NCBI GenBank assembly: GCA_052386635.1
Contig: JBQTJY010000090.1
Coordinates: 1 to 35,330, forward strand
From: Nitrososphaerota archaeon
Lineage (GTDB): Archaea; Thermoproteota; Nitrososphaeria; Nitrososphaerales; Nitrosopumilaceae
Direction of reading: 5' to 3'
Length of the DNA: 35,330 nt
Part shown: positions 1-16,560 of the stretch, piece by piece
Layout of the letters: the number at the start of each line of letters is the position of its first letter
How positions within the stretch are numbered: the stretch's first letter is position 1
Made by a program: the position numbers and the translations under genes
Notes under the pieces: model-generated
Database searches by the model: none
Seen by the model: the letters and a program-made list of their open reading frames with translations, nothing else
Told to the model about the DNA's origin: nothing

Positions 1-746
1 TGGGTTTTGGTTTTACTTTTTAATATTTCCAATATTGCATTTTTCATATCTATTACTTTGTAAGCCTTTAATTTTGGTACGAATACTTCGCCGCCTCTAG
101 CGTTTTTTATAACTCTTAATATCAAATCTAATGCCTCATTCATTGTTATATTAAATCGCGTCATATTTGGATCAGTAATTGTGATTTTTTTACCGCTTTT
201 AATCTGATTTACTAAAGTTGGTACAAGTGATCCTCTACTGCCTAATACATTGCCGTACCTTACACAAGCAAATTTAATCTTGTGACTTCCTTTGTAATAG
301 TTTGCTAAGATGAATATTTTTTCCATCAATAATTTTGTTGCACCGTAGGCATTAAATGGAGATACAGCTTTATCGGTTCCAACTGCTAGCGCAAATTTTA
401 CATTTGACTGTAAGCATGCATCTACTACATTTTGTGCACCAACAACGTTTGTTTTTATTGCCTCAAATGGATTGTATTCTATGACTGGTACTTGTTTTAA
501 CGCAGCAGCATGTATGACTATATCGATATCTTCTAATGCTGTTTCCAGTCTTTCTTTATCTCTTACATCTCCAATTAAGAATCTTAATCTTTTATCATTG
601 AATTTTGCTTCCAATTGACTTTGTTTTAATTCGTCTCTGCTAAAAATTCGAATTCTTTTTACATTTGTTTTTAATAATCTTTCAGTTAAGGCAGTGCCAA
701 GTGAGCCAGTACCTCCAGTAATGAGTACTTGTTTTCCATCAAACAT
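1..746 (-). CDS. pseB: UDP-N-acetylglucosamine 4,6-dehydratase, CapD/FlaA1/PseB family (extended SDR); C-terminal end cut by the left window edge
   Basis: Not in the ORF track because it runs off the edge. The reverse strand from ATG (746..744) reads MFDGKQVLITGGTGSLGTAL...FLIGDVRDKERLE...SPFNAYGATKLLMEK. This gives a GxGxxG Rossmann motif, DVRD and the YxxxK catalytic pair typical of PseB/FlaA1/CapD dehydratases. Confidence 0.75.
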   Translation of the reverse strand, partial: MFDGKQVLITGGTGSLGTALTERLLKTNVKRIRIFSRDELKQSQLEAKFNDKRLRFLIGDVRDKERLETALEDIDIVIHAAALKQVPVIEYNPFEAIKTNVVGAQNVVDACLQSNVKFALAVGTDKAVSPFNAYGATKLLMEKIFILANYYKGSHKIKFACVRYGNVLGSRGSLVPTLVNQIKSGKKITITDPNMTRFNITMNEALDLILRVIKNARGGEVFVPKLKAYKVIDMKNAILEILKSKTKT

Positions 747-851
747 TATCAAAATAATTTGTCAACAGTAAAAGAATCTTACGGCTAAATTATCTTAAAT
801 CGCTACATACTAAACAAAAACTAATTATGACTAAAAACTAGAGTTTAGAAC

Positions 852-2018
852 ATGGCAAATGATACTGTCATAATAAATGGATTAGTAAGAGAATATCCTG
901 AATTTAGATATAGCACCAAAGAGTTAGTTGATATTTTAGGAAATAAGCTTTCAGAAAAAGTTAGAGATAACATTCAACAACTGGGAGTAGATTATCGCTA
1001 TTTTACAAGACCGTTTGAACGTTATATTGGAAATACGGGAGAACGAATTAGATCCTTCGATGATGGTGAACCAATCTCAGATCTTTGTACTAAAGTGGCA
1101 AAAAAATGTTTACAAAAATTGGGTTTGAAATTAAATGATATAACTTGTTTGGTTACTGCATATGAGGATAATGATTTTTTGAGTCCAGGATTAGGTTCAC
1201 TTCTTGTCACAAAAATAGGATTTTCCAATTTTATGCCACACTATAATATTCAAGGTATGGCATGTTCTACATTGCCAAAATTATTAGAACTAGGAAAAAA
1301 TCTACTTCATAATGACAATGACAAGATATTGTTTGTTATTTCCGGTTGTAACTCTGGATGGTATCTCCCACATCTTAAAGATGATATGTTTGTACTAAAT
1401 CCAAAAGAGATTGGAGAAAAACAATACGATCGAGAAAAACAGATTAAAAAATGGGTTTCAACTATGTTTTCATTCTTATTTGGTGATGGTGTTGCAGCTT
1501 TTGTATTAAGTAAAACTAGTTTAGAAACCAACACTATAAAAATTGGAAAAATAACCCATGCCGTAAATTTTGATACTTCTGATTACAGAAAAGCATGTGT
1601 CAGATTAGTAGGTCATCAATCAAATCATCTTTACGAACATGAACTAACAGCAGAAAGTGATATATTGAAAAGATCTCTTGAATATTCAAAAAAAGTTTTA
1701 GCTAGATCATTTGGAAATGATATTGAAATTTATGATGAACAACAAACAGAGTCTTTTATGTCAGAACAAAAGAAAGTTATGATTCATACAGGAAGCTTAA
1801 AAATCCTTGATGGATTTAAAAACCTCTACAAGTTAAAAGATAATCAGATACAGGAATCCTACGATACTCTACGTGAATATGGAAATTTGACTGGAGTTAG
1901 TATTCCCACGGTTATGGATAAAGCAATGTTTCATAATAATCAAATTAAAGGAAAAGGCCTGTTAATTGGTATTACAATGGGTTTTGGTTTAGATATAGTA
2001 GAAGTAGAAAAAATCTAA
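852..2018 (+). CDS. FAE1/type III polyketide synthase-like 3-ketoacyl-CoA synthase (thiolase fold, KAS III-like condensing enzyme)
   Basis: 388 aa. YNIQGMACSTLPKLLELGKNLL resembles the active-site Cys segment of FAE1/KCS and type III PKS enzymes (GMGCSAG-like). MIHTGSLKILDG (His) and EYGNLTGVSIPTVMD (Asn) complete a Cys-His-Asn triad. Confidence 0.7.
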   Translation: MANDTVIINGLVREYPEFRYSTKELVDILGNKLSEKVRDNIQQLGVDYRYFTRPFERYIGNTGERIRSFDDGEPISDLCTKVAKKCLQKLGLKLNDITCLVTAYEDNDFLSPGLGSLLVTKIGFSNFMPHYNIQGMACSTLPKLLELGKNLLHNDNDKILFVISGCNSGWYLPHLKDDMFVLNPKEIGEKQYDREKQIKKWVSTMFSFLFGDGVAAFVLSKTSLETNTIKIGKITHAVNFDTSDYRKACVRLVGHQSNHLYEHELTAESDILKRSLEYSKKVLARSFGNDIEIYDEQQTESFMSEQKKVMIHTGSLKILDGFKNLYKLKDNQIQESYDTLREYGNLTGVSIPTVMDKAMFHNNQIKGKGLLIGITMGFGLDIVEVEKI

Positions 2019-2058
2019 ATTTGTCAAAATTAAACATATTATAAAAATAACGCCAATA

Positions 2059-2814
2059 TTATTTTACAGATACCCCTCCATCAACTGCTAGAATTGAACC
2101 AGTAGTCCAAGAAGAATCATCAGATGCAAAATATAAAACAGCTTTAGCAATATCTTCTCCAGTTCCAATTCTTCCAAGCGGGTGTTCAGCTGAAGCAACT
2201 TTTCTTTTTTCTTTTGTATTTAGCCAAAACAATTTTGTCATATCAGTATCAACTACCGCAGCACAAATGCAATTTACACGAATATTATTTTTAGCATATT
2301 CTAAAGCCAAGTTTTTTGTAAGATGAATTAAGGCTGCTTTTGACACAGAATATGCATCAGCATAAAAATTTTCAAATGTTTTCAAACCTGCATCTGATGA
2401 TATGTTAATAATTGAACCACCTCTAATTTTCATAAATGGTATTACAGTCTTTGTAAATCTAAATTGTCCAGTTAAATTCACATCTATTACATTATTCCAT
2501 TCTTTTTCAGATATTTTATGTAACAGTTTCATCTCTGGAAATATCCCTGCGTTGTTTACTAAAATATCAATTTTTCCAAATTTTTTGATAGTCTGATTGA
2601 CAACATGCTTAACATCGTTTTCTTTACGAATGTCACCGCAAACAAAAAACGCTGCTCCTATTTCCTTAGATGTTTTTCTCAACATTTTTTCATTCTTAGA
2701 AGTTATTATTACACACGCATCTTCTTCAACAAATAATTTCGCTATAGCTTTTCCTATTCCGCGACTTCCACCTGTAATTAACGCAACCTTTCCAGAAAGC
2801 TTCATACTTTTCAC
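2059..2814 (-). CDS. short-chain dehydrogenase/reductase, FabG-like 3-ketoacyl reductase
   Basis: 251 aa. Contains TGGSRGIGKAIA cofactor motif, NNAG and the YSVSK catalytic Tyr-Lys. A 4-nt overlap (2811..2814) with the upstream GNAT gene suggests co-translation. Confidence 0.85.
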   Translation of the reverse strand: MKSMKLSGKVALITGGSRGIGKAIAKLFVEEDACVIITSKNEKMLRKTSKEIGAAFFVCGDIRKENDVKHVVNQTIKKFGKIDILVNNAGIFPEMKLLHKISEKEWNNVIDVNLTGQFRFTKTVIPFMKIRGGSIINISSDAGLKTFENFYADAYSVSKAALIHLTKNLALEYAKNNIRVNCICAAVVDTDMTKLFWLNTKEKRKVASAEHPLGRIGTGEDIAKAVLYFASDDSSWTTGSILAVDGGVSVK

Positions 2815-3479
2815 ACTAAAATTTTAAATTCAATATCTCCAAAATTTTTCATCAAATTCTCTTTGGTAAGTTCAATTATGTTGAAATATCTTTCTACAGG
2901 TTTGTTATTGGATTTCGATTTTTTTTCTTCCCATTTTATTCCATCTTTGGTTTTTTTCTGTTCAACTGGTACTACATCAATTGTAATCCACCCACATTTT
3001 TTATGAATATTCATCATTTTCTCATTATCTGAAAACAAAAATCCTGTTATCTTTGACAATTTTAGTCCCTCAAACATCCATCGTAGATAGACTTTTTCCA
3101 CAACAGTCATGAGCCCAGGTAAATTGTATGTAGGATCCTTTATCATTGTATCCAACATAGCGGAATTTGTTTTTTTATCATATGCCGCCGTGCTTATAAT
3201 TCCTATTTTTTTATTATCTACATATATCATAAATACAATTTTTTCAGGATTTTCTAAAACTCCTTTTTTAATCCATTTTCTTGTTTTTTCTTCACTCATT
3301 TTAAAATCAGTTCCAAACATGTTTCTGTATTTTTTTCTCCAATTATATAGAAGGTTTACTGTTTCATCAGACTCATCAACTAGTTTTAAAATGGCATTTT
3401 TTCCATTATGTTTGATTTTTATAAAATCAACACAGCCTAGATTTTTTATTTCTTTTAATTTTTCGTGATAGTAAGTCAT
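2811..3479 (-). CDS. GNAT-family N-acyltransferase (RimJ/RimL-like)
   Basis: 222 aa. The C-terminal half (PGLMTVVEKVYLRWMFEGLKLSKITGFLFSDNEKMMNIHKKCGW) follows the GNAT acetyl-CoA-binding and beta-bulge pattern. It lies in an operon with the sugar aminotransferase. Confidence 0.5.
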   Translation of the reverse strand: MTYYHEKLKEIKNLGCVDFIKIKHNGKNAILKLVDESDETVNLLYNWRKKYRNMFGTDFKMSEEKTRKWIKKGVLENPEKIVFMIYVDNKKIGIISTAAYDKKTNSAMLDTMIKDPTYNLPGLMTVVEKVYLRWMFEGLKLSKITGFLFSDNEKMMNIHKKCGWITIDVVPVEQKKTKDGIKWEEKKSKSNNKPVERYFNIIELTKENLMKNFGDIEFKILV

Positions 3480-3541
3480 ATCAATCTGCGGATAAATAAC
3501 AAAAATTTTTCATATTGATTCGTTTATTTTATTATTACAAA

Positions 3542-4642
3542 TCACGCAAATTTATTTACTAATCTTATTATCTCATCAACATCATTTTCTGAAAGGTTAG
3601 GATGAATAGGTATAGTAACTATTTGTTTCCCGACTATCTCTGTTATTGGTAAATTCAATTTTTTCTTATATAAGGACATTGTATGAATCGGTTTATAATG
3701 AATTCCGGTCTCAACATTTTGTTCTTTCATTTTTTTCATAAACTTATCCCTATTTTTTACTTGTATCCAATATAGGTGATATGAACAATCTTTATTGTAT
3801 GGCATTTTATTTTCCAATGTAATTTCATTTGAATATTTTTTTGCAATAGCCTTTCTTTCCATATTTGTTTGGTCTAATTTTTTTAGTTGTTCTAATCCGA
3901 TCGATGCAGAAAACTCATTCATATAATAATTCCAACCTAATTGAGTAACATCATATTTAGCATCCTTTCTATTTGAAATTCCACACCATCTGAGAATTTT
4001 AACTTTATTTTGAAAAAATCTGTTGTTCTTTCCGTTTAAAGTAACGGCACCGCCTGTGGGCATAGCCAAATTTTTCACGGGGTGGAAACTAAAACAGACT
4101 ATAGTCCCATGACTTCCAATTTTCTTTCCCTTATATGATGCACCTGCAGCATGTGCGGCATCTTCAACTAATTGAATATCAAACGTATTACATAATTTTT
4201 GTATGTTACCTAAATCACTTGGCATGCCACCAAAATGAACTGGTAGAATTACCTTAGTTTTCTTCGTAATGTGTTTCTTAATCTTTTTAACATCTATACA
4301 TAAAGTATTCGGTTCAACATCAACAAAAACTGGAATTCCACCATTGTAAATTACTGCATGAGCAGTTGAAACAAATGATAAAGACGGTAAAACGACTTCT
4401 TTATTTTTTATATCTATTAGTGATAATGCCAAATGCAGTGCTGCAGTTCCGCTATTTAATGCGACGCAACTATCTGCTTTAATGTATTTTTTAAACGCGT
4501 TTTCAAATTTTAAAACATTACCAGTACCTGTACCCGATGCCCAAAACCCACTTTTTAGAGTCTTTTTTAATGCTAACTCTTCCGCATATCCAATTACTGG
4601 ATCAAACAACTTGATTTTCTTCATTTTAAAATCACTAAACAT
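3542..4642 (-). CDS. pseC: DegT/DnrJ/EryC1/StrS-family PLP-dependent nucleotide-sugar aminotransferase (PseC-like)
   Basis: 366 aa. Contains SGTAALHLAL, DAAHAAGA and SFHPVKNL (PLP lysine), typical of sugar 4-aminotransferases. It sits between two GNAT genes and near pseB, pseG and pseI. Confidence 0.8.
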   Translation of the reverse strand: MFSDFKMKKIKLFDPVIGYAEELALKKTLKSGFWASGTGTGNVLKFENAFKKYIKADSCVALNSGTAALHLALSLIDIKNKEVVLPSLSFVSTAHAVIYNGGIPVFVDVEPNTLCIDVKKIKKHITKKTKVILPVHFGGMPSDLGNIQKLCNTFDIQLVEDAAHAAGASYKGKKIGSHGTIVCFSFHPVKNLAMPTGGAVTLNGKNNRFFQNKVKILRWCGISNRKDAKYDVTQLGWNYYMNEFSASIGLEQLKKLDQTNMERKAIAKKYSNEITLENKMPYNKDCSYHLYWIQVKNRDKFMKKMKEQNVETGIHYKPIHTMSLYKKKLNLPITEIVGKQIVTIPIHPNLSENDVDEIIRLVNKFA

Positions 4643-5093
4643 CTGGATTAATTATTTCATAGATATACTCTAAACCAGTAAATCCAAGTTTTTTAAAAAA
4701 TTCTTGCTGCTTGATATTATTAGGTGCAATATTTACAAGATATCTGCCTCTAGGATTTTTTTCCATTAATAATTTCACTGCTTTTCTACCAATACCTTTT
4801 CTTTGAAATTTTTTTTTAATAGATATCCCAATTTCGTCCTTTAACGATAGATAGATTGAACCAACTTTTTGTTCATTAGATTTTATTATATACCATTTTT
4901 TGTAAGGTTTTTTCATTACAAATCTAACATGTTCATCATATGTTGGCAATTTTTTATGAGATATATTTGTCCGAGGATCCCGCATCTTTAGAAGTTCATA
5001 TAGGAATTCATAGTCTGCTTTGGTAACTTTTTCTAAAACTACATCTTGAAACTTATCAACCACATGGCATAATCTTTGCGTCATGTATTTCAT
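4635..5093 (-). CDS. GNAT N-acetyltransferase (candidate PseH-type acetyltransferase)
   Basis: Contains the QRKGIGRKAVKLLM motif A (Q/RxxGxG/A). The track ORF extends to 5198, but that extension overlaps the divergent gene at 5150 and looks non-protein-like. ATG at 5093 (MKYMTQ...) or 5084 is more plausible. An 8-nt overlap with the pseC-like gene suggests an operon. Confidence 0.65.
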   Translation of the reverse strand: MKYMTQRLCHVVDKFQDVVLEKVTKADYEFLYELLKMRDPRTNISHKKLPTYDEHVRFVMKKPYKKWYIIKSNEQKVGSIYLSLKDEIGISIKKKFQRKGIGRKAVKLLMEKNPRGRYLVNIAPNNIKQQEFFKKLGFTGLEYIYEIINPDV

Positions 5094-5149
5094 TATATCT
5101 ATGAAATTTTTCTTGATATTATTAATAAAGCACAATAATTGAAGTTCTG

Positions 5150-5905
5150 TTGTTGGACAATCATTTGGTAGTAGGTTTAGGAGAAATAGGAACACCAATT
5201 CTAAAACTTATATCAAAAAAATTCAATGTAGTAGGTTATGACATAAACCCTAAATTAATGAATAAACGTAGGTATGAGAAATTAAAAAACCAGCAAATAG
5301 TTTTTGTACATACATGCATACCATTTTCTGATAATTTTGTAAAAAATGTAATTGAGATTGCTAAAAAACATAATCCTCGGGGAATTGTGATTCATAGCAC
5401 TATCAGTCCACATACTACAGAAAAACTTCAGAAACATCTGAGAATTCCGGTAATTTACAGTGCTACAAGAGGCGTTCATAAGAGAATGCTCTATGATCTA
5501 ACACGATATACAAAATTTTTTGCCATCGAATCCAATGCTCCAAATAAAAAATGGGCATCTATGACATATTCAAAAATGATGAAAAAGTGTGGCATAAAAA
5601 CAAAACAAATGTCTAGTCCAATAGTATTGGAACTTGCAAAAATAGTAGTTGACACGTCATATTATGGATGGCTGATTAATTATGCTCAATTAAGTAATAT
5701 TATTGCAATTAAAAATAAAGTTGATTATGATGAAATGTGGAGTTTTGCAGATGAAATCCACAAATTCCTAGGTAACAGACCTAAAATGTTTCCAGGATTT
5801 ATTGGGGGACACTGTGTTATTCCTAACCTTGATCTGATAAAAAATCAAACTTTAGATATAATAAGAGAAATTAATTTAGAATATTCGAAGATTCTAAAAA
5901 AATAA
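5150..5905 (+). CDS. short NAD-binding UDP-glucose/GDP-mannose dehydrogenase-like protein (lacks the C-terminal nucleotide-sugar-binding domain)
   Basis: 251 aa with a TTG start. Has an N-terminal VVGLGEIGTPI Rossmann motif, a central LELAKIVVDTSYYGWLINYAQLSNI helix pattern, and FIGGHCVIPNL resembling the catalytic-Cys motif (GGHC/GGSC) of nucleotide-sugar dehydrogenases. The ORF ends about 30 aa after that Cys. Confidence 0.5.
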   Translation: MLDNHLVVGLGEIGTPILKLISKKFNVVGYDINPKLMNKRRYEKLKNQQIVFVHTCIPFSDNFVKNVIEIAKKHNPRGIVIHSTISPHTTEKLQKHLRIPVIYSATRGVHKRMLYDLTRYTKFFAIESNAPNKKWASMTYSKMMKKCGIKTKQMSSPIVLELAKIVVDTSYYGWLINYAQLSNIIAIKNKVDYDEMWSFADEIHKFLGNRPKMFPGFIGGHCVIPNLDLIKNQTLDIIREINLEYSKILKK

Positions 5906-5919
5906 TTATTTTATTAAAA

Positions 5920-6930
5920 CTATATTCTACTTTTGATAAACTCAATAGACTTTATTGGTGAGGGATCTGTTTTTCCTATTAATGCACGATAAATTGATGC
6001 ATAATCTAAAAGATATATGAAATGTGTTATTTTTGATAAGATACTGCCGCTAATTGAATAAACTTCTTTATAATCAATCCCATTAACTTTAAAATATTCT
6101 TTTAGAATTTTCCATCTCTCTTTTGTTTTAATGTAATCCTCTTTTCCTTCTAATAGAATAGGTTGAACATTTGAAGGTTGTTCCCATGAAACTATTCCAT
6201 TATGGCATGCTTCAACTACATCTTCAGTAATAACATGAATTTTTGCATTTTCTTGTAGTGAATTTTTAAATCTTATTGCAGCAGCCTGTAGCCCCCACGG
6301 ATAATAGATAATCGGTATTTCAGTTATCCAATACGCTACATCTAGTGCAGGATTGTTTTTTGTGAGATTTGATGAGTTAATCTCTTCGTTGAGATTCTCC
6401 AAGCCGCTTATGGATTCTAAAATATCATTTTTAGTTAATGGGAGTATGTTATCTAAAACATTTAGCATGCTATACAGAAATGCAGTAAATGATGCTCTTG
6501 GTGAATGAATTAAGGGAATTTTCCTATGTTCTAGTTTGTATTTTTTACAATATGTTTCCATTTTTCCTCCAGATGAAAACGCAATAGTCTTGTTTTTTGC
6601 CTTTTTTGCCAAATCTAAGATAGTATTAGTTTCTGTGGTGTTTCCAGATACACTAGTAGTAACTACTAATGTGTTTGAATTCACAGTGTTGGGAAGATGA
6701 TATCCTTTAACGACAGAAACATGGATTTTTGTTTTAGATAATATTGCTGAAAATACATCTCCAATTGAACCTGAACCACCCATACCTGCAAAAACAATAT
6801 GGTCTATATCATCAACATCAATTTTCGTAAGATCTTTTTCGAAATATTCTTTGGCAATTTCTGGCCATTTATCATATACTTTATGCATACATTTTGGGTC
6901 ATATTTTTTTACGGTGGAAATATCTAGCAA
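5920..6930 (-). CDS. bifunctional phosphoglucose/phosphomannose isomerase (SIS domain, archaeal PGI/PMI type)
   Basis: 336 aa. Has FAGMGGSGSIGDV and VVTTSVSGNTTET SIS motifs, and the overall length fits archaeal PGI/PMI. TTG start at 6930. Confidence 0.75.
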   Translation of the reverse strand: MLDISTVKKYDPKCMHKVYDKWPEIAKEYFEKDLTKIDVDDIDHIVFAGMGGSGSIGDVFSAILSKTKIHVSVVKGYHLPNTVNSNTLVVTTSVSGNTTETNTILDLAKKAKNKTIAFSSGGKMETYCKKYKLEHRKIPLIHSPRASFTAFLYSMLNVLDNILPLTKNDILESISGLENLNEEINSSNLTKNNPALDVAYWITEIPIIYYPWGLQAAAIRFKNSLQENAKIHVITEDVVEACHNGIVSWEQPSNVQPILLEGKEDYIKTKERWKILKEYFKVNGIDYKEVYSISGSILSKITHFIYLLDYASIYRALIGKTDPSPIKSIEFIKSRI

Positions 6931-7016
6931 TTTGTTATGGAAAGAAGCATTGCAATAAAATACTTAACTACTATTTTCAATCTAAACTCAACATATCAAA
7001 AAATTATGGTTTATAG

Positions 7017-7730
7017 TTAATTATGCTCTATTATCCTTATAATTTTAAAAGCTTCAGCTGCATTTATTCCAGAAACAATGCCCCATTTTTTTGCATTGAT
7101 TCGAATATTCTCTGACGATCTGGGATGTGGAAAGCTTCTTTTTTCATTTTTGTACATTGAAAGTGCTTTAACCTTTTTTTCCAAATATGCGGCTATATTT
7201 ACAAAATAATTTGGACTAAAATCTATAGGATAATTCCATTCCGTTGATGATGGTACTTCAAAACACATTAATTCTTTAACATGTGAACGAAATGGTCTAC
7301 AAGCTGTAAGAGTAGCATTAAAAACTATTTTATGATCAATGTTAAGATCCCCATAATTATTTGTATAAACTCTGAACGGCTTAACTTCGTAAATCTCTTT
7401 TTCTATTGCTTTGACAATTTTTAAAAGTGGAACTGAATCCATCTCGTTATCTGGAAAGTCGTAAAATTTTTGTTTATGGACTTTCAGGATCTTACATGCG
7501 TTTTTAGCATCTTTCTTTAATTCATCAATTTGTTTTTCTATTTTTTTTTGTTCGTTTTTATCAAGATCGTATTTAAGCATATTTTTAAAATTTACAGAAC
7601 GGCGAGAAATTATTCCAGATGTAAGATAAATCACATACACTTTATCGTTTTTTAAAGCATGTTTTAACATTGTCCCACCCATGCCTAACACTTCATCATC
7701 TGGATGTGCTGCGACCACCAGAACGTTCAT
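7017..7730 (-). CDS. PIG-L/LmbE-family N-acetyl-sugar deacetylase
   Basis: 237 aa. The N-terminal VVAAHPDDEVLGMGGT is the signature metal-binding motif of PIG-L deacetylases. There is a downstream HxxH-type His (DLNIDH). Confidence 0.8.
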   Translation of the reverse strand: MNVLVVAAHPDDEVLGMGGTMLKHALKNDKVYVIYLTSGIISRRSVNFKNMLKYDLDKNEQKKIEKQIDELKKDAKNACKILKVHKQKFYDFPDNEMDSVPLLKIVKAIEKEIYEVKPFRVYTNNYGDLNIDHKIVFNATLTACRPFRSHVKELMCFEVPSSTEWNYPIDFSPNYFVNIAAYLEKKVKALSMYKNEKRSFPHPRSSENIRINAKKWGIVSGINAAEAFKIIRIIEHN

Positions 7731-7808
7731 AATTTTTTACCTTATTTCTTGTAATATTAACCGTTATAATCATGATTAGTTGTAAATTTCTGCTTTAAAA
7801 CTGCATGA

Positions 7809-8468
7809 CTAAATCCTTTTTGCAACAAAATTCCATCCTGCAAATTTCTTTTCTTTTGGAATTTTCATTGTGACCATTTTATGTTCTAAAACCAAAATTT
7901 TGAATTTTTTAAATAAGTTTAACAGATGTGATTTATTCGAAAAATGAACAACACCAAGACCTGTAAACTGACCCTTCTTGTATCCTGTTCTGGTATATTT
8001 ATCGACTCTAGTGCCTTGTAAATAATCAGAGTGCTTAATTGAAATCCAATCAACACCAATATACCTAGTATCGGATTTCATTTTTTCGTAAACTAATTCC
8101 AAGCTTTGTTTGATTCCTTCCGTCGTATTGTGAGTAAGTGCACTTCTGTCTAGAATTAGATCAAATTTTTCATTGAACGGTATTTCCTTGGTGAAGTCTG
8201 CGATAACCAAATTTTTCTTAATTTGTGGAAATTTTCTCTTAAGTCTGTTTACTATAGCAAAACTACCATCAATTCCATAATATTTGTAACCCAGTGATAA
8301 AAAGAAAGGAATATTGGCCCCTGACCCAAACCCAAGCTCCAAAACTCGAAAATTCTTCTTGGTAGAATAAGCATAACGCCTTACATAACTAACTACGTCA
8401 GACCATGGCCAAGCATTCATTTGCTTATAGTACCTGTATGCTTGATTCCATTCTTTAGAAAAACTCAT
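7809..8468 (-). CDS. class I SAM-dependent methyltransferase
   Basis: 219 aa. Has VLELGFGSGANIPFF (motif I, GxGxG) and an acidic residue after beta-2 (YYGIDGS). Confidence 0.75.
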   Translation of the reverse strand: MSFSKEWNQAYRYYKQMNAWPWSDVVSYVRRYAYSTKKNFRVLELGFGSGANIPFFLSLGYKYYGIDGSFAIVNRLKRKFPQIKKNLVIADFTKEIPFNEKFDLILDRSALTHNTTEGIKQSLELVYEKMKSDTRYIGVDWISIKHSDYLQGTRVDKYTRTGYKKGQFTGLGVVHFSNKSHLLNLFKKFKILVLEHKMVTMKIPKEKKFAGWNFVAKRI

Positions 8469-8600
8469 GTTGTGTTCTACATTAGGTTATTAATAAAATT
8501 CAATGCATAAAATGTAATTCCATAATAATTTAATGATCTCTAAACTCCAATTCTATTTGACACTAGTAAACGCATTTCAATGGTTTTGCATTTTCATTTT

Positions 8601-9545
8601 TCATGTACTTTTAACATTTTTTTTCAAAAATTTAGCGGGTGAACCAACTATTACAGAATTTTTTGGAAAATTTGATCGAACTAAACTTGATGTACCAACA
8701 AAACAATTATCTCCGATTTCACAACCTGCATCGATAACTGAGTTTGGAGCAATCCAACAGGCCTTTCCTATTTTTGCTCTGCCACATATTATACTACCAG
8801 CAGTAATCTGGGTAGCGTTTTTAATAATAGTATTATGACCAACATGAACTAGATCATCAATTTTGACATGATCTTCAATAACAGTTTGATCTATCTGTGA
8901 TTTTTCAACGGTACAATTTGAACCAATCCAAACATTTTCTCCAATTAAAATAGAACCTAAATGTGGAAAGTGAAAAAACCCCTCTCCTATAAAACTAAAA
9001 CCAAATCCCTCACTACCAATTGTGGTGTTGGATAGTATTACAGAATTAGAACCAATTTCTGTTTTACCATAAATACAGGTGTTACTTAATATCTTAGTTT
9101 TATCACCAATTTTTACATTATTTCCTATGTAACAATTTGAACCAACATACACATCTTTCCCAATTATGGCGTTTTTTTCAACAACGGCAGTTTTGTGGAT
9201 CCCAGCTTTAAACTCATCATCTGTAAAAAATTCCATTATTACACGTTGAAAGTCTAATCTTGGATTTTTTGAAGAAATTATTGGCATGTTAACTTTTTTT
9301 TTAATTTCATCAGTAGCTATAAGAACAATATTTTTGAATTTTTCTAATTTTTTTAGATCATAGTTTATGTTATCCTTTATTCTGAACTGCAAATTTGCAA
9401 AATCAGAGTAAAAAAGTATAGAATTATTTTTCACATTATTAAGTGAACTAAAAGAAGTCACATTGAAATCTTTTCCATCATAACTTCTTTTTAAAAAAGC
9501 AGCTATTTTTTTTACAGAAATTTTATTTTCTCTTTGTTGATACAT
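8601..9545 (-). CDS. LpxD-like left-handed beta-helix (hexapeptide-repeat) N-acyltransferase
   Basis: 314 aa. The N-terminal region (ISVKKIAAFLK...NVTSFSSLNNVKNNSILFYSD) resembles the LpxD UDP-binding domain. A long run of [LIV]-G-x4 hexapeptide repeats follows (IGKDVYVGSNCYIGNNVKIGDKTKI...). Confidence 0.7.
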   Translation of the reverse strand: MYQQRENKISVKKIAAFLKRSYDGKDFNVTSFSSLNNVKNNSILFYSDFANLQFRIKDNINYDLKKLEKFKNIVLIATDEIKKKVNMPIISSKNPRLDFQRVIMEFFTDDEFKAGIHKTAVVEKNAIIGKDVYVGSNCYIGNNVKIGDKTKILSNTCIYGKTEIGSNSVILSNTTIGSEGFGFSFIGEGFFHFPHLGSILIGENVWIGSNCTVEKSQIDQTVIEDHVKIDDLVHVGHNTIIKNATQITAGSIICGRAKIGKACWIAPNSVIDAGCEIGDNCFVGTSSLVRSNFPKNSVIVGSPAKFLKKNVKST

Positions 9546-9773
9546 AATTATCTATTTGAAGCTAGGTTGAGTCGCTTAAATATTTTAATACATAATTGAC
9601 CGCTATTATTTTTTGCAGTTCTACAAATTATGAATCTAATCAAACACCTAAGAATGTTTACAATAGGATTTTAAAAAAATTAGATGTTTGAGGTTACTAG
9701 AATTGCTATAATCAAAAAATAAATTCAAATTTTACAAACACATTCATTTTTGATAGTATCATTTTTGTATAGG

Positions 9774-10877
9774 ATGAATACGATTTATTATCTATTGAAA
9801 GAAAAAAATCTTTTCATCCGTACTGATTCAGGCACTGAAATTGGAGTAGGTCATATGATGCGTTGTTATGCATTAGCAGAAATTCTTAAGAACATGGATT
9901 TTGATGTATATTTTATTTCGAGAAAATTAAAAGGAAATATTTGTGATTTTATAGAAGATAAAGGATTCAAAGTACATTATATTCACACTAACAATCAAAA
10001 TAAAAAACAAAATAAATTTTCAAAATACAGTAATAATAAAACCATAGAAAAAGATATTTTAGAAACAACTAAAATTTTAACCAATTATAATGATAAATCA
10101 TCATTGCTTTTAGTAGATCATTATGATCTTGATATACGATGGGAATCATCTTTACGAAAATTTGTTAAGAAAATCATCATCATTGATGATCTAGCTAATA
10201 GAAAACATGATTGTGATTTATTACTGGATCAGAATCTTTATGAACAAATGAATAAGCGTTATGCAGGATTAGTACAAAAAAATTGTAAAAAATTACTTGG
10301 TCCAAAATATGCACTACTAAGATCTGAATTTTCCGAACTTAGAAGAACTATAACAAAGCGTAAAAAATTACAAAATATTCTAGTTTCCTTTGGTGGTAGT
10401 GATCCAAGAAACGAAACTGCCAAAGTACTTCAGGCACTTAAAATCCTTAATAGAAAAAACTTTACAGTAGACGTAGTTGTAGGAAACGTAAATCCACATA
10501 AAGAAAAAATACAGAATATGTGTTCTTCAATGCTGAATACAACATTTTATGTTAACATAGATAATATTGGTGAGTTGATGTCAAAAGCACATCTAGCGAT
10601 AGGTGCTGGTGGAAGTACAACTTGGGAAAGATGTTGTTTAGGATTACCATCTATAGTTTCTATAATATCTAGCGACCAAGCTGAAATGACTAAATTACTA
10701 GCTAAAAAAAATTGTGTGATAAATTTAGGTAATTTTCAAAATTTGACATCTAATGATTACGTTAAGGCAATCAAAAGAATGAATAATAAAATCATCGCTA
10801 AAATGTCATCTAATTGTATGAAAATTGTCGATGGTCTTGGCTGTTTTCGTGTAGCAGAAATAATAAACTCGCTATAA
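9774..10877 (+). CDS. pseG: UDP-2,4-diacetamido-2,4,6-trideoxy-beta-L-altropyranose hydrolase (PseG, GT-B fold)
   Basis: FIRTDSGTEIGVGHMMRCYALAEIL matches the PseG N-terminal signature (R-D-S-x-x-IG-x-GH-x-x-R). FGGSDP is also present. The track start (TTG at 9750) was replaced by the first ATG at 9774. Confidence 0.7.
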   Translation: MNTIYYLLKEKNLFIRTDSGTEIGVGHMMRCYALAEILKNMDFDVYFISRKLKGNICDFIEDKGFKVHYIHTNNQNKKQNKFSKYSNNKTIEKDILETTKILTNYNDKSSLLLVDHYDLDIRWESSLRKFVKKIIIIDDLANRKHDCDLLLDQNLYEQMNKRYAGLVQKNCKKLLGPKYALLRSEFSELRRTITKRKKLQNILVSFGGSDPRNETAKVLQALKILNRKNFTVDVVVGNVNPHKEKIQNMCSSMLNTTFYVNIDNIGELMSKAHLAIGAGGSTTWERCCLGLPSIVSIISSDQAEMTKLLAKKNCVINLGNFQNLTSNDYVKAIKRMNNKIIAKMSSNCMKIVDGLGCFRVAEIINSL

Positions 10878-10892
10878 ATAGTAGATGTTACG

Positions 10893-11946
10893 TTGAATCC
10901 AATCACGATAAAAAATTTCAAAATTGGTCGTGGATTTGTACCATTTATTGTAGCTGAAGCAGGATTAAATCATAATGGTGAAATTCAAAAAGCATTTGAA
11001 ATGATTAAAGTTGCTAAAGAAGCAGGCGTAAATGCCATAAAATTCCAAACTTTTAAAGCTAGTGAGTTCATTGCAGACACTACTTTAACATACACATACC
11101 TCTCACGAGGTAAAAAAATTACAGAACCTCAGCTTGAACTCTTTAAAAGATGTGAATTCTCTCGTGAAGATTGGTTTAAAATTAAAGAAAAATGTGATAA
11201 AGAAAAAATCATGTTTTTATCTACTCCTGAAAATCGTTCTGACTTGGATTTATTACTTGAAATTGGGATTCCTGCCATTAAAGTTGGATCTGATGAACTC
11301 ATTAACTTACCGCTTCTAAAGGATTATGCTACAACAGGTTTACCAATAATTTTATCATCAGGAATGGCAAATCTGGATGAAATTCATGATGCGTTAAAAA
11401 CAGTAGGTGCATTAGATGGTTATCCTACAATCTTACTTGTAACAACTTCTGAATATCCAACTGCTTTTGAAGACGTGAACTTACGGAAATTTGAAACACT
11501 TTCAAAAACATTTCCAAGTATCCCATTAGGATTTTCAGATCACACTCAAGGTTTTTTAGCATCATCATTGGCCTGTGTTTTTGGCGCATGTTTTTTCGAA
11601 AAGCATTTTACATTATCACGATCTAGAAGGACCAGATCATTGGTTCTCAGAAGATCCTATGGGACTGAAAAATTGGGTTAATTCGATAAAAATTGCATAC
11701 ACTTTGTTAGGATCAAATGAAGTTAAACCAACTGAGAAAGAACTAGAACTGAGAAAGTTAGCTAGAAGAAGCATTATTGCATTATGTGATATAGAAAAAG
11801 GCGAGAAATTTAACAAAAACAATATAGGATTACGAAGGCCTGGTAATGGGTTGTCGCCAAAATTAATTGATCAGATTTATGGATTAAACGCAACAAGAAA
11901 AATACTCAAGGGGACGCTAATCAAATTTAGTGACTTTGAAAACTAA
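10893..11946 (+). pseudogene. pseI: pseudaminic acid / N-acetylneuraminic acid synthase (NeuB/PseI family) broken by a frameshift near 11616..11620
   Basis: The frame of 10893 reads FIVAEAGLNHNGE...KFQTF...GFSDHT...FFEKHFTL and then degenerates to a stop at 11679..11681. The next frame, from 11620, reads DLEGPDHWFSEDP...ARRSIIA...GLRRPGNGLSP. That is the canonical continuation, including the C-terminal SAF-like domain. Confidence 0.75.
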
Positions 11947-11958
11947 TGCATAATATAG

Positions 11959-11977
11959 TTTTTTTACAAATTTTTTT
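11959..11977 (+). terminator. oligo-T tracts (two T7 runs) downstream of the pseG-pseI unit
   Basis: TTTTTTT at 11959..11965 and again at 11971..11977, right after the stop at 11946. Archaeal RNA polymerase terminates at oligo-T. Confidence 0.35.
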
Positions 11978-12041
11978 AAATTATAAATTATATTTTAAAC
12001 TCATGATTAAAAATGAGTCATTCATATATACATAAATAATA

Positions 12042-13190
12042 ATGCAGATTGTCATGCAAAAATCTAGCATAGCACCACAATTTGGCAATCGTGATCAAAC
12101 TTTGACAGTATTGGGTGGTGAAGGTTCAATGATTTTTACTAAAGAATACGGTACTTTGTTTGATGCAGTTGCAGGATATTGGTATAACATACTTGGGATG
12201 AGAAATCCAGAGCTTCTTGAAGTAAAACGAGAGGTAGGTGGCATAGCTACTCACCTATATGACGAATACACAAATCCTTATGCTGAAGAATTGGCACAAT
12301 CAATTTGTAAACGCACATCTATGTCAAAACTTGTGTTTTCTGCAACTGGCAGTATGGCATGTGAAAATGCTCGTAAGGAGGCTGTAAAATATCATCAAGC
12401 AAAGGGTAGACTAGAAGAAGAACTTGTATTCGCCACAATCAAAGGAAGCTATCATGGCTCTGTTGGTGAAATGTTAAAGTGGATAGATCCACAAAGGAAT
12501 CAATATTCAATTGACGAACCAATTTATGAAAAGAAAAATCAAGTTAATGAAATTGTAAATAGCTTTAAGGAAAAAATTGATCTCGCAAAGTCTAATGGTA
12601 AAACAATTGCTGGTTTTTTCTATGAACCAGTTATGGGCGTTAGAGGTGTGGTTCCACTTCCACCAGAATATTTAGAAGGTATTGCAAAAATTTGTAGGCA
12701 ACACGATATACTTTTGATTGCTGATGAAGTTACAACTGGTGTTGGAAGAACAGGCAAATTTATCTATAGTGAATCTTTTGAAGTAAAACCGGATATTTTG
12801 TGTTTGGGAAAATCAATCAGCGCAGGGCATTATCCAGTTGCTGTTACCATATTTAATGAACGTGTAATAGATGCATGGAATGTATTAGAAGAACAGGGTA
12901 TACCATACTATAAAATTCATCGTAGAGGTAACAGTATCACTGGAACGCAGGAGGGGTGTGCAATTGGATTAAAGGTGCTTGAAATTTTGGAACGTGATAA
13001 TTTAATCCAACAGGTTAATGAAAGAGGCAAATACGCTCTAGAAAAGTTAAAAAAAATAGAAAACCGTTCAAGTGTTAGAGAAATACGAGGTAGGGGACTT
13101 CTAATTGGAATAGACGTCACGGATTCTGACCTCTCTAAAAAAACGATAACACCAAAAATGAGAAAACGTGGAATCAATATTTTCCCATAA
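12042..13190 (+). CDS. class III PLP-dependent aminotransferase, prematurely terminated by an in-frame TAA (conserved C-terminus continues to 13283)
   Basis: LLIADEVTTGVGRTGK and CLGKSISAG (PLP Lys) are class III hallmarks. After TAA (13188..13190) the same frame reads GRVITFNPAYIVSEEQIDNFVNNLSEVLPS, the usual C-terminal strand-helix of this family. Confidence 0.8.
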   Translation: MQIVMQKSSIAPQFGNRDQTLTVLGGEGSMIFTKEYGTLFDAVAGYWYNILGMRNPELLEVKREVGGIATHLYDEYTNPYAEELAQSICKRTSMSKLVFSATGSMACENARKEAVKYHQAKGRLEEELVFATIKGSYHGSVGEMLKWIDPQRNQYSIDEPIYEKKNQVNEIVNSFKEKIDLAKSNGKTIAGFFYEPVMGVRGVVPLPPEYLEGIAKICRQHDILLIADEVTTGVGRTGKFIYSESFEVKPDILCLGKSISAGHYPVAVTIFNERVIDAWNVLEEQGIPYYKIHRRGNSITGTQEGCAIGLKVLEILERDNLIQQVNERGKYALEKLKKIENRSSVREIRGRGLLIGIDVTDSDLSKKTITPKMRKRGINIFP

Positions 13191-13343
13191 GGTAGAGTTA
13201 TAACATTTAATCCTGCATATATCGTATCTGAAGAACAAATTGATAACTTTGTAAATAATTTAAGTGAAGTTTTACCATCCTGAGAATGGTAGATGGTTAT
13301 AATTAAAAACAAGATTTTCTAAAATTCAATCAAAATATTGTTT

Positions 13344-13745
13344 TTATTTCCTTTTTCGCTGCTTTTCTTTTAATACAACACACGTACCAGATGCCTTTGC
13401 TACAAGAACTGGGGGGTCAAGTACATCACAAGCACTATCCTCATGATCATGAGTAGATGCAATTACTTTGTATGCTTCAAAGACCATTTTTCTACTAGTA
13501 TTTCCTGCTTCGGTAATTCTTCCTATCGCCTCAATGTAATCACCACTATGAACTGGCGCAAGAAATTCAACTTGATCATAGGCCCGGAATAGACCTTCAT
13601 CTCCATCATAACGAATAGTTAACTCTGTAGCTAAATCTCCAAACAAGTTAAGAATTCGTGCGCCATCAACTAGTTTTCCAGCATAATGTGCATCATGAGA
13701 ACTCATTCTAATTCGTAATTTAGCTTCTGGATACAAATTAGTCAT
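13344..13745 (-). CDS. hotdog-fold protein of the aminoacyl-CoA ammonia-lyase family (beta-alanyl-CoA / 3-aminobutyryl-CoA ammonia-lyase-like)
   Basis: 133 aa. From my recollection, [29 protein letters not shown]...[13 protein letters not shown] closely follows the N-terminal pattern of Acl/Kal-type lyases (S-x-DAHY-x-G-x-LV-x-GAR). The size fits a single hotdog domain. Confidence 0.55.
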
Positions 13746-13852
13746 ATCTAAAAAGCCAATTTAGTACAATGAAAGTTTTTTTATTATAATATTTAAAGCG
13801 ATGCTCTGAAATTAAAAGTAATGCCAATCAGTAAATCTCATGATTTCTAGAA

Positions 13853-15433: not shown

Positions 15434-15666
15434 TTTCTTTTCCTTTTTTTCGAACGTTTTGTCCTCTTCACTCTCTTGTTTTTTAACCCATCGTTTCCTT
15501 AACCCATTTTGGCAGCTACAAAATTTGAAAAATATAAAACCGTTCGCTATTTGCACTATTTGAGCTAGAATTTCATTTTGAAGCCAATATTACTATACCA
15601 TATAAATCAAGAAAATGAAATTCTTCGTAAAATTTAATTTAGTTTAATCATTCTAGTTTTTTCATA

Positions 15667-16554
15667 ATGATTAATTCAATTAAGACAATACTTGAAAAAC
15701 TAGACTATAAACTGAATGCCGAAGATGTCCATTTAGCAGAATTTTTCAACGAAAATGGTTTTTGTATAATCCCAAAATCTGATTTAGTTAGTAAATATGT
15801 TGATGAGTATAGAAGAATTATTGATTCATTGCTAGAAAAAGAATCGTGGAGAGGTGGTTGGGAAGGAAAAGAAGAATATATGAAATACCAAAAAATTTTT
15901 CAACCAGGTGCAAATAGATTAGGAAATTTATTCAACAAACATGAATTATTTCTCAAACTGTTAACTGAAAAAAATATTCTTAAAATATCTTATGCGATCC
16001 TTGGTGATGATGTAAAAATTGGTGCTCTAGATATGCGAGAACCTAAAAAAGGAACCGGACTACAAGATCTTCATATAGACTGGATACCAAAAAAAAGCGA
16101 AGACGAAAAAACCCAAAACATTGTAGCTTTTATTTTTCTAGATGACACCAATAAAAATAATGGGCCCATGCGTATTGTTCCAAAAACTCACAAGAAAACT
16201 GGTTGGATTGAAGAACATCTAAAGGATAAATCTTCACATCCAGATGAAATATTTGTTGAAATTAAAGAATCAGGAATTATTCTAATGGATGCAAATCTCT
16301 GGCATAGTGGCACCGCTAACATCAATGGGAATAGAAGACGTGTTTTGTTTATGGATATCAGACGGAGGGATATACCACAATTATTGAATCAAAGAATCTA
16401 TTTAGACGAAATTACACAAAAAAAACTTACTGACATAGAAAAATTTTTGTTAGGTCTTGGAAATAATGATATGGTCTTTGAAGATAGAGTCTTCACTGCA
16501 GGAAATGTATATAGAAAACAATTCAAAACTACTGATTTTGTTAAAATGTACTAA
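15667..16554 (+). CDS. phytanoyl-CoA dioxygenase (PhyH) family Fe(II)/2-oxoglutarate-dependent dioxygenase
   Basis: 295 aa. Has LHIDW (HxD facial triad), a distal NLWHSG His and an RRR Arg cluster for 2OG binding. Confidence 0.75.
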   Translation: MINSIKTILEKLDYKLNAEDVHLAEFFNENGFCIIPKSDLVSKYVDEYRRIIDSLLEKESWRGGWEGKEEYMKYQKIFQPGANRLGNLFNKHELFLKLLTEKNILKISYAILGDDVKIGALDMREPKKGTGLQDLHIDWIPKKSEDEKTQNIVAFIFLDDTNKNNGPMRIVPKTHKKTGWIEEHLKDKSSHPDEIFVEIKESGIILMDANLWHSGTANINGNRRRVLFMDIRRRDIPQLLNQRIYLDEITQKKLTDIEKFLLGLGNNDMVFEDRVFTAGNVYRKQFKTTDFVKMY

Positions 16555-16560
16555 AAAATA

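Follow-up and report, generated by a model that had tools for sequence, protein, structure and literature searches.

The 35,330-bp contig JBQTJY010000090.1 of a Nitrososphaerota archaeon (GenBank assembly GCA_052386635.1), analysed over its whole length and hereafter called the window, carries a surface-glycan island for a pseudaminic acid (Pse)-type nonulosonic acid (NulO) at positions 1..~17,270. Embedded in this island is a conserved unit consisting of a divergent predicted condensing enzyme related to ketoacyl synthase III (KAS III) and type III polyketide synthases (PKSs), hereafter KAS-like, a short-chain dehydrogenase/reductase (SDR) and an adjacent N-acyltransferase, which is either the acetyltransferase-like GNAT1 or, in other loci, an AAC(3)-like protein; a PIG-L-family de-N-acetylase and an LpxD-like N-acyltransferase encoded in the same island are accessory to it. 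We propose that the trio makes an (R)-3-hydroxyacyl-coenzyme A (CoA), probably with a C4 chain, for N-acylation of a Pse-type sugar in place of acetyl, with GNAT1 as the likeliest transferase, a reading to which we would give a probability of roughly 0.45.

An initial annotation made from the sequence alone had singled out four genes, encoding the condensing enzyme (852..2018), a ketoreductase (2059..2814), the PIG-L deacetylase (7017..7730) and the LpxD-like acyltransferase (8601..9545), as a deacetylate-then-reacylate module. Open reading frames (ORFs) and domain and profile searches agree with that annotation on the position and family of all four genes, as well as on the presence of an S-adenosylmethionine (SAM) methyltransferase (7809..8468) and two GNAT proteins (2811..3479 and 4635..5093/5198). 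It also placed the genes in a Pse-type cluster of an archaeon, and both parts of this are borne out: PseB-, PseC-, PseG- and NeuB/PseI-type proteins are encoded in the island, and the contig carries the archaeal markers thermosome subunit, deoxyhypusine synthase and F420 reductase.

The predicted condensing enzyme

The KAS-like protein (852..2018, plus strand, 388 aa) scored just under the Pfam gathering thresholds for Chal_sti_synt_C (26 vs 27), ACP_syn_III_C (25.4 vs 26.6) and FAE1_CUT1_RppA (18 vs 27), and was far under the NCBIfam/TIGRFAM cut-offs for FabH (53 vs 249 and 37.7 vs 292) and DpgA. As the FabH cut-offs are missed and the island has no acyl carrier protein (ACP) gene, the protein is not FabH proper. 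A profile of 24 homologues matched 2-pyrone synthase, FabH, Steely1, PKS18 and plant 3-ketoacyl-CoA synthases (KCSs) in the PDB (E values 4e-10 to 1e-6), and in these profile alignments Cys138, His312 and Asn345 occupy the positions of the catalytic residues (Cys, His and Asn) in 2-pyrone synthase and FabH. The catalytic triad reported in the initial annotation thus holds on alignment, and it does not vary among 234 homologues (213 of them distinct, the most divergent 63% identical) or 13 remote relatives (24–38% identity), the latter passing the Pfam thresholds for ACP_syn_III_C, Chal_sti_synt and FAE1_CUT1_RppA. An intact Cys-His-Asn triad is the signature of decarboxylating Claisen condensation in the thiolase superfamily.

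An exhaustive profile search of 1.84 billion cluster representatives gave only 647 matches at E<1e-3, 29 of them at E<1e-30; the protein's own clade comprised a single full-length representative (one cluster at 50% identity), and its remote relatives numbered a few dozen. From the few matches and the one full-length representative, the KAS-like protein belongs to a small, isolated clade of the KAS III/type III PKS superfamily. More than 300 homologues with 63–94% identity were found in marine metagenomes, the named ones belonging to Marine Group I thaumarchaeotes and to one metagenome-assembled genome (MAG) labelled Pelagibacterales. The AlphaFold2 model reached a predicted local distance difference test (pLDDT) score of 56; its top Foldseek matches were all FabH, type III PKS, OleA or PqsD, at template modelling (TM) scores of only ~0.2, and it was used as evidence no further than family level, as was the equally poor model of the LpxD-like protein discussed below.

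Compared with characterized members of the superfamily (FabH, NphT7-type enzymes and type III PKSs), the protein shares the aligned triad and a length of ~390 aa, and its GMACS, HTGS and YGNL motifs resemble those of KCSs and type III PKSs; no ACP partner is encoded. It differs from them in falling under every curated cut-off, in its isolated phylogenetic position, in its archaeal host and in its location in a sugar island beside a ketoreductase and N-acyltransferases.

The reductase, GNAT1 and the conserved unit

The SDR gene (2059..2814, minus strand; adh_short_C2, 234 bits) is convergent with the KAS-like gene. Its product is a classical, FabG/PhaB-like SDR with the motifs ITGGSRGIG, NNAG and YSVSK (classical TGxxxGxG, NNAG and YxxxK), and its closest solved relatives were a (3R)-hydroxyacyl-CoA dehydrogenase followed by many FabG proteins. 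It scored under the FabG equivalog cut-offs (218.4 vs 222, 217.3 vs 296 and 209.5 vs 297.8) and the only model that it passed was the one for the broad 'glucose 1-dehydrogenase' subfamily (262.8 vs 215). The GNAT1 gene (2811..3479, minus strand; Acetyltransf_3) overlaps it by 4 nt, the GNAT1 stop lying over the SDR start. GNAT1 belongs to a small family (147 matches), and its only specific similarity is a weak one to PseH (41 vs a cut-off of 93).

To place these genes in context, 99 loci were collected (86 via the KAS-like protein, eight via the LpxD-like protein and five via GNAT1; numbered with the prefix L), and the window proteins and extra families were mapped onto them by tblastn. De-duplication at 95% identity left 56 KAS lineages, 22 of which have at least 3 kb of DNA on both sides. 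Within these 22, counting matches anywhere on the available DNA, the SDR was found in all, GNAT1 in 12, the second GNAT protein (GNAT2) in 10, an AAC(3)-like protein in nine, PIG-L in seven and the LpxD-like protein in four. Distance was restricted in two further counts. Fifteen loci have flanks of 5 kb or more to the left and right of the KAS-like gene, and in these, matches within 5 kb of that gene numbered 14 for the SDR, nine for GNAT1, seven for GNAT2, six for PIG-L and two for the LpxD-like protein; for the 10 loci whose flanks both reach 8 kb or more, the corresponding counts within 8 kb were 10, five, seven, three and zero. SDR orthologues with 65–98% identity adjoin the KAS-like gene in 22/22 well-flanked lineages, and even the most divergent KAS members (63–68% identity; L076, L077, L081, L082 and L085) have an SDR adjoining downstream, although a different one; the two genes thus always occur together as obligate partners.

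The third member of the unit varies. Of the 40 loci that have GNAT1, 38 show it adjoining the SDR with both genes on one strand, and loci retrieved via GNAT1 alone (64% and 54% identity) keep the order GNAT1, SDR and then a convergent 388-aa KAS-like gene. A second architecture, seen in 29 loci, brings together on one strand PseB, the SDR, a winged-helix protein of the DUF4910/M28-peptidase-like type, an N-acyltransferase of the AAC(3) family (Antibiotic_NAT) and the KAS-like enzyme, with GNAT2, NeuB and PseC coming after them. The DUF4910/DUF2172 and AAC(3)-family genes lie directly upstream of the KAS-like gene (L023, 7719..9963, and 28 others, including L011, L022, L048, L066 and L075), and the pair may represent a second combination of deacylase and acyltransferase, analogous to PIG-L and GNAT1. 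KAS sequence clusters track the locus architectures. All related loci are Pse/NulO clusters (PseB, PseC, NeuB, CMP-transferase); one of them, L006, comes from a Marine Group I single-cell genome and was the only locus returned by a scan of genome contigs with one protein. The arrangement is not due to chance, as the same genes recur in dozens of independent metagenomic loci.

A proposed soluble 3-hydroxyacyl donor for N-acylation

Starting from the family assignments, catalytic residues, gene order and strength of each linkage as observed, we infer the substrates, chain length, stereochemistry, the nitrogen that is modified and the pairing of transferase and donor as follows, reading the region as the tailoring part of the NulO island of a marine ammonia-oxidising archaeon. 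The KAS-like enzyme would condense an acyl-CoA starter with malonyl-CoA to a beta-ketoacyl-CoA, in the simplest case acetoacetyl-CoA; NphT7 makes acetoacetyl-CoA by that condensation. The FabG/PhaB-like SDR would reduce the product to an (R)-3-hydroxyacyl-CoA, and the adjacent N-acyltransferase, GNAT1 or the AAC(3)-like protein, would transfer the 3-hydroxyacyl group to one of the amino groups of the UDP-sugar precursor, where it would replace acetyl. GNAT2, whose gene is found in the company of PseB and PseC, would act as the ordinary PseH-type acetyltransferase. In a separable, accessory layer, PIG-L would deacetylate the UDP-sugar at its 2-N (N5 of the later nonulosonate), and the LpxD-like enzyme or GNAT1 would acylate it anew.

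One donor-making pair combined with interchangeable transferases (GNAT1 or AAC(3)-like) is what a soluble acyl-CoA donor predicts. The initial annotation had noted that no ACP gene is visible; none was found in 1..17.3 kb, where intergenic gaps reach at most 205 nt and are too short to accommodate one. Together with the short C-terminus of the LpxD-like protein, this fits CoA-thioester chemistry. Ammonia-oxidising archaea (AOA) have malonyl-CoA, acetoacetyl-CoA and (S)-3-hydroxybutyryl-CoA from the 3-hydroxypropionate/4-hydroxybutyrate cycle; a dedicated route would give an irreversible, separately controlled supply, in all probability of the (R) enantiomer. Counting an omega-type aminotransferase and a lyase homologue described below, the island encodes as many as four enzymes that would handle C4 beta-substituted acyl-CoAs, which supports a C4 product and also raises a possible 3-aminobutanoyl substituent.

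Several observations weigh against this proposal. The AlphaFold models (pLDDT 56 for the KAS-like and 54 for the LpxD-like protein) are too poor for pocket inspection because the alignments are shallow (identities of at least 63% and at least 77%, respectively). The window encodes three N-acyltransferases (GNAT1, GNAT2 and the LpxD-like protein) for two sugar nitrogens, so that at least one of them has a role that the proposed scheme leaves unexplained, and loci of the L087 type have the same three without PIG-L. As the trio also occurs without a deacetylase, deacetylation followed by re-acylation is not its general logic. In many thaumarchaeal loci (L006, L019, L026, L074, L087 and L091) GNAT1-SDR is immediately preceded, on the same strand, by a class III aminotransferase gene, an arrangement that hints at a different or additional fate of the beta-keto group. 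Finally, the window has a frameshift in the NulO synthase gene and a premature stop in the aminotransferase gene, both detailed below; the pathway may be inactive or decaying in this genome, or these may be assembly errors.

The PIG-L and LpxD-like proteins

The PIG-L/LmbE-family protein (7017..7730, minus strand; Pfam PIG-L 89.8 vs 28.2) has the metal-binding motif AHPDDE at residues 8–13 and aligns with the LmbE-related structure 2ixd, so that its family is secure, and it scored under the cut-offs for BshB, MshB and Mca. The LpxD-like protein (8601..9545, minus strand) is a two-domain hexapeptide-repeat N-acyltransferase homologue of which residues 8–312 match positions 3–320 of the 345-position LpxD model, the protein ending at position 320 with little C-terminal extension. 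It aligns to Chlamydia LpxD over residues 10–305 and keeps the catalytic His-Asn, the 'AHN' of E. coli LpxD corresponding to 'GHN'. Its scores lie under the curated LpxD cut-offs (NF002060, 188.6 vs 207; TIGR01853, 174.9 vs 242.5), no ACP or lpx gene was found near it, and the host is archaeal; it was not classed as LpxD, although it may work in an LpxD-like manner. Its structure model (pLDDT 54) gave meaningless beta-helix matches in Foldseek. Homologues amounted to 1,820 matches, of which the best 120 are at least 77% identical, and the two with an organism name among those listed (P0184) are from Marine Group I.

The LpxD-like gene sits in a conserved block of its own, made up of NeuB, the LpxD-like protein, PhyH, a TylF-like methyltransferase and an aldehyde dehydrogenase (ALDH), and in two long loci found via this protein (L087 and L091) the block runs on to an aminotransferase, GNAT1, SDR and the KAS-like gene; PIG-L is absent from the 19-kb L087. 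PIG-L for its part follows directly on GNAT1 in eight loci, where SDR, GNAT1 and PIG-L are consecutive on one strand (L004/5, L010, L013, L020, L027, L036 and L049). The co-occurrence of all four genes of the initial annotation extends beyond the present genome to L004/5, L027, L041, L047 and L055, and in the last three the set is contiguous with GNAT1: PIG-L, LpxD-like, GNAT1 and SDR are consecutive on one strand and convergent with the KAS-like gene. The LpxD-like gene is nonetheless found without PIG-L in L012, L026, L074 and L087, and PIG-L without an LpxD-like gene on the available DNA in L010, L013, L020, L036 and L049. The four-gene set is thus real in some genomes, but it is a sub-configuration of a more general and more strongly conserved trio and, with the SDR in 22/22, PIG-L in 7/22 and the LpxD-like gene in 4/22 lineages, not itself the conserved unit.

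These linkages bear on the first alternative to our proposal, the version of the initial annotation, in which the GNAT proteins are plain acetyltransferases, PIG-L removes the 2-N-acetyl of the UDP-sugar and the LpxD-like enzyme re-acylates it with a 3-hydroxyacyl-CoA from the KAS-like enzyme and SDR, in a scheme analogous to LpxC/LpxD but without ACP. The LpxD-like protein aligns with LpxD over almost the entire length, has His-Asn intact, and its solved relatives use (R)-3-hydroxyacyl donors; the loci with all four genes, three of them contiguous, agree with such a scheme, as does the presence of KAS-like, SDR and GNAT1 genes in the thaumarchaeal clusters found via the LpxD-like protein (L087 and L091). 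It is nevertheless unlikely to describe the system, as the LpxD-like gene occurs in so few of the well-flanked KAS lineages and in none of the best-flanked loci within 8 kb, its constant neighbours are NeuB, PhyH and the methyltransferase and not the KAS-like gene or SDR, and it and PIG-L are each found without the other. The SDR is physically coupled to GNAT1, which the initial annotation listed only as 'a second GNAT', not to the LpxD-like gene, and in 29 loci an AAC(3)-like gene stands beside the KAS-like gene instead, so the assignment of the LpxD-like protein as the acyltransferase of the module was not upheld. As the substrate of LpxD itself is a UDP-sugar, the LpxD-like enzyme would be a reasonable re-acylator at a freed 2-N, and given the frequent PIG-L/GNAT1 adjacency, GNAT1 would be an equally good candidate.

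Alternative fates and functions

A different acyl group could also be made, in that the beta-ketoacyl-CoA is transaminated to a 3-aminoacyl-CoA (e.g. 3-aminobutyryl-CoA), or is longer or further modified, with the aminotransferase, the lyase homologue, PhyH and the methyltransferases taking part and the extra N-acyltransferases capping the new amino group. This reading would explain three N-acyltransferases for two sugar nitrogens and draws on the aminotransferase gene directly upstream of GNAT1-SDR in the six loci named above. A hot-dog protein in the window (13344..13745, minus strand; orthologue in L049) passes the 3-aminobutyryl-CoA ammonia-lyase equivalog cut-off (NF052388, 185 vs 160), and the aminotransferase, lyase homologue and ALDH lie within the island between NeuB and PhyH/methyltransferase. 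Most lineages, however, have the trio of KAS-like enzyme, SDR and transferase without an aminotransferase (present in 3/22) or lyase homologue, the latter having been seen only in the window and L049; the aminotransferase and ALDH7-like protein could, judging from their families, equally be a lysine-to-2-aminoadipate pair, and we can cite no known example of a 3-aminobutanoyl nonulosonate. We regard this route as distinctly unlikely.

It is also conceivable that no acyl donor is made at all, the KAS-like protein being a KAS III-type acyltransferase (CerJ- or PqsD-like) and the SDR a PtmA-like or sugar-directed reductase as in legionaminic acid (Leg) clusters. Such a role would suit the great remoteness of the KAS-like family from any assayed enzyme, evident from the 647 matches and the weak FabH and type III PKS scores given above, and FabG-like SDRs of unclear role, PtmA and SfmC, are known from Leg and flagellin-modification clusters (PMC4481668; PMC3765264). 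The complete, invariant Cys-His-Asn triad is, however, typical of decarboxylating condensers, and KAS III-like acyltransferases as a rule depart from it. The SDR is bound to the KAS-like gene and not to sugar-nucleotide genes, and among solved structures those nearest to it are acyl-thioester reductases. The chances of this explanation are accordingly slim.

That the genes are unrelated neighbours gathered in a hypervariable surface-glycan island is very improbable for the trio, since the KAS-SDR pairing and SDR-GNAT1 abutment survive shuffling across 56 lineages and independently selected loci, even though the island has a lower G+C content than the rest of the contig (0.30 vs 0.346) and gene content is shuffled between loci. 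For single accessory genes (the SIS protein, the NAD-binding ORF or the methyltransferase) chance proximity is possible; for the trio the linkage statistics count against it.

Organisation of the island and the Pse pathway

The island has a G+C content of 0.30 over 1..11,946 and 0.308 over 1..17,268, and the remaining, housekeeping part of the contig has 0.346. The contig also codes for an aa3-type oxidase and cupredoxins. The nearest named homologues are from Marine Group I thaumarchaeotes. Scans for bacterial-type promoters and terminators and against Rfam gave nothing relevant.

The window start cuts the gene for a PseB-like UDP-GlcNAc 4,6-dehydratase (3..746, minus strand; N-terminal 248 aa; Polysacc_synt_2, 297 bits), whose fragment scored 344 against a TIGR03589 PseB cut-off of 407. 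On the minus strand the reading order is GNAT2, PseC, GNAT1 and SDR. The PseC-like DegT aminotransferase (3542..4642, minus strand; DegT_DnrJ_EryC1, 342 bits; TIGR03588 PseC, 277 vs a cut-off of 423.5) overlaps GNAT2 by 8 nt. GNAT2 (4635..5093, minus strand) is a small GNAT protein of ~150 aa, unrelated in sequence to GNAT1 and PseH-equivalent by position, lying between PseB and PseC in L004, L027, L049, L059 and L087; by this company it would be the natural equivalent of an ordinary PseH-type acetyltransferase, although only GNAT1 has a PseH sequence signal. The mechanically called ORF of GNAT2 (4635..5198, 187 aa, TTG start) overlaps the divergent ORF 5150..5905, and as the orthologues have 136–142 aa, the true start is probably the ATG at 5093. 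The ORF at 5150..5905 (plus strand) is conserved, with an orthologue of 62% identity in L055 and a weak NAD-binding signal resembling the N-terminus of UDP-sugar dehydrogenases; neither it nor GNAT2 has a specific relative in the PDB.

A SIS-domain protein similar to phosphoglucose/phosphomannose isomerases is encoded at 5920..6930 (minus strand; bact-PGI_C, 126 bits; TIGR02128, 181 vs a cut-off of 214), with orthologues in L037, L054, L066 and L070. We considered whether it and the SDR might correspond to Campylobacter PtmF and PtmA, and rejected this because PtmF is listed as an oxidoreductase and not a SIS isomerase (PMC4481668) and because the SDR is tied to the KAS-like gene. A homologue (53% identity) of the class I SAM methyltransferase (7809..8468, minus strand) adjoins the KAS-like gene in L095–L097.

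The UDP-sugar hydrolase PseG (9750..10877, plus strand; TIGR03590) passes its cut-off, at 300 bits vs 153.6, and is followed by the NeuB/PseI-type nonulosonate synthase (10893..11946, plus strand), which scores higher as NeuB (255) than as PseI (181). PseF was not found in the window; a CMP-transferase is present in related clusters. A 1-nt indel near 11,626 (TTA TCA C GAT), which is not in a homopolymer, breaks the synthase gene into two ORFs that overlap; intact 354-aa orthologues read ...EKHFTLDKNLPGPDHWF... across the break point, so the gene is either a pseudogene or wrongly assembled. In the class III (omega-type) aminotransferase gene (12042..13280, plus strand), a premature TAA at 13188-13190 stands where orthologues have Glu (GAA), and thirty conserved in-frame codons follow to 13280.

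Beyond the hot-dog protein lie an ALDH7-type aldehyde dehydrogenase similar to L-piperideine-6-carboxylate dehydrogenase (13853..15556, minus strand; NF050084, 739 vs a cut-off of 730), which is found within the cluster in L026, L049, L074 and L087–L093, and a PhyH-family 2-oxoglutarate/Fe(II) oxygenase (15667..16554, plus strand), which in many loci is paired with the LpxD-like gene and with a methyltransferase like that at 16561..17268. The latter, a Methyltransf_24 (TylF-like) protein on the minus strand, marks the right-hand end of the island. The class III aminotransferase, lyase homologue and ALDH genes have a core-like G+C content of 0.35–0.38, though they lie within the low-G+C island.

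Further genes in related loci

In L085, where the KAS-like protein is 63% identical, the KAS-like, SDR, PIG-L and a formyltransferase gene are found in this order at 4276..8034 and another hexapeptide-repeat transferase follows; the set would fit a sugar with both hydroxyacyl and formyl N-substituents. In L095 (13518..16490; also L096 and L097), a further acyl module is encoded beside the trio, made up of an AMP-binding ligase, a protein resembling glyoxalases, a PP-binding carrier of 79 aa with a DSLD motif and a transferase of the AAC(3)-like type, and a split transketolase on the same contig may hint at an archaeon.

The KAS lineage from the MAG labelled Pelagibacterales (GCA_014382065.1; P0082) is 72% identical to the window protein and is represented by L001–L003 and also by L014, L028, L038, L042, L061 and L062. 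These loci carry GNAT1, SDR, a different PhyH and a protein combining Rieske and metallo-beta-lactamase domains, and the 10-kb flank holds glycan genes only; this is either sharing of the module between domains or mis-binning. The 614-aa Rieske and metallo-beta-lactamase protein recurs in L001 (6234..8078) and nine other loci; the pairing may be similar to that of CMP-Neu5Ac hydroxylase. A Capsule_synth gene (KpsC/KpsS-like, ~494 aa), absent from the window, is found in 33 loci (e.g. L004, 11214..12698) between the KAS-like and SDR genes or elsewhere in the cluster, and its product is a candidate nonulosonate transferase.

Comparison with known systems

In lipid A biosynthesis, LpxC deacetylates a UDP-sugar, which LpxD then N-acylates with an (R)-3-hydroxyacyl group. 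In the window, likewise, a de-N-acetylase shares one cluster with a two-domain hexapeptide acyltransferase of the LpxD type that keeps the catalytic His, but the deacetylase is of the PIG-L/LmbE family and not LpxC, the acyltransferase is under the LpxD cut-offs and short at its C-terminus, the island lacks an ACP gene, and the two genes often occur separately.

As the initial annotation noted, N-(3-hydroxybutyryl) pseudaminic acids are known in bacteria. Pse5Ac7(R)Hb and Leg5Ac7(R)Hb are made in A. baumannii by psaABCGHF and lgaABCHIFG, respectively, and these N-(3-hydroxybutanoyl) forms arise from the exchange of two module genes (psaABCDEF vs psaABCGHF) with no donor-supply genes (PMC9676051). 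The donor comes from general metabolism in A. baumannii, whereas in the loci described here the transferase gene is accompanied by dedicated genes for a condensing enzyme and a reductase.

Bacterial flagellin-glycosylation and pse islands likewise embed acyl-chain enzymes among pse genes. Aeromonas group II pse islands encode an ACP, a 3-oxoacyl-ACP reductase, an AMP-ligase and LuxC/E, and group I islands a deacetylase, a class III aminotransferase and a methyltransferase, the products being unknown in both cases (PMC7874193). The FabG/PtmA-like SfmC of Shewanella is needed for flagellin modification (PMC3765264), and in C. jejuni cj1303 is a second FabH gene (fabH2) beside the flagellar-glycosylation genes cj1305/6 (PMC3229698, PMC3283744). 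These bacterial sets have either an ACP, AMP-ligases and LuxC/E, or a canonical FabH, and none of them involves a type III PKS-like enzyme or the trio, whereas the window has no carrier protein and a non-FabH condenser; a carrier-protein module (AMP-binding, PP-binding and AAC(3)-like) does occur in the related L095. The novelty claimed in the initial annotation is correspondingly narrower: fatty-acid-synthesis-like genes in bacterial pse islands have already been reported, but a literature search of incomplete coverage found no description of this type III PKS-like family or of the trio. A deacetylase and FabG/FabH are not mentioned in the paper on the nab cluster of Vibrionaceae. The glycobiology of marine AOA has been called 'largely unexplored', and no N-glycans were found on one marine Nitrosopumilus species in a 2025 glycoproteomics study (PMC12153357).

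Significance

The findings describe a known kind of process, N-acyl tailoring of nonulosonic acids, in a new form, with a trio that is widespread in marine metagenomes. Taken at its broadest, and in our view rather doubtfully, this would mean that the nonulosonic-acid islands of Marine Group I archaea, and of SAR11-type bacteria provided that the MAG is labelled correctly, hold a self-contained toolbox for short-chain acyl-CoA chemistry. An unrecognised clade of malonyl-CoA-dependent condensing enzymes would act there as acetoacetyl-CoA synthase, in hosts without a fatty-acid synthase, together with a ketoreductase, joined in some lineages by a beta-transaminase and a homologue of 3-aminobutyryl-CoA ammonia-lyase; the toolbox would feed interchangeable N-acyltransferases (GNAT, AAC(3)-like and LpxD-like) alongside de-N-acylases (PIG-L and the M28-like DUF4910), to yield strain-specific 3-hydroxy- or 3-amino-butanoyl pseudaminic acids on the cell surface.

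N-acyl variation of Pse and Leg is among the main sources of diversity in surface antigens, and probably in phage receptors as well, and the module sits in some of the most abundant microbes of the ocean. If the proposal is true, coupling a dedicated pair of donor-making enzymes to interchangeable transferases would represent a new genetic logic of surface diversification. To our knowledge, archaea obtain malonyl-CoA from the carbon-fixation cycle and have no fatty-acid synthase. Our reading proposes a concrete, testable function for an isolated KAS III/type III PKS clade and would place a malonyl-CoA-using condensing enzyme in archaea.

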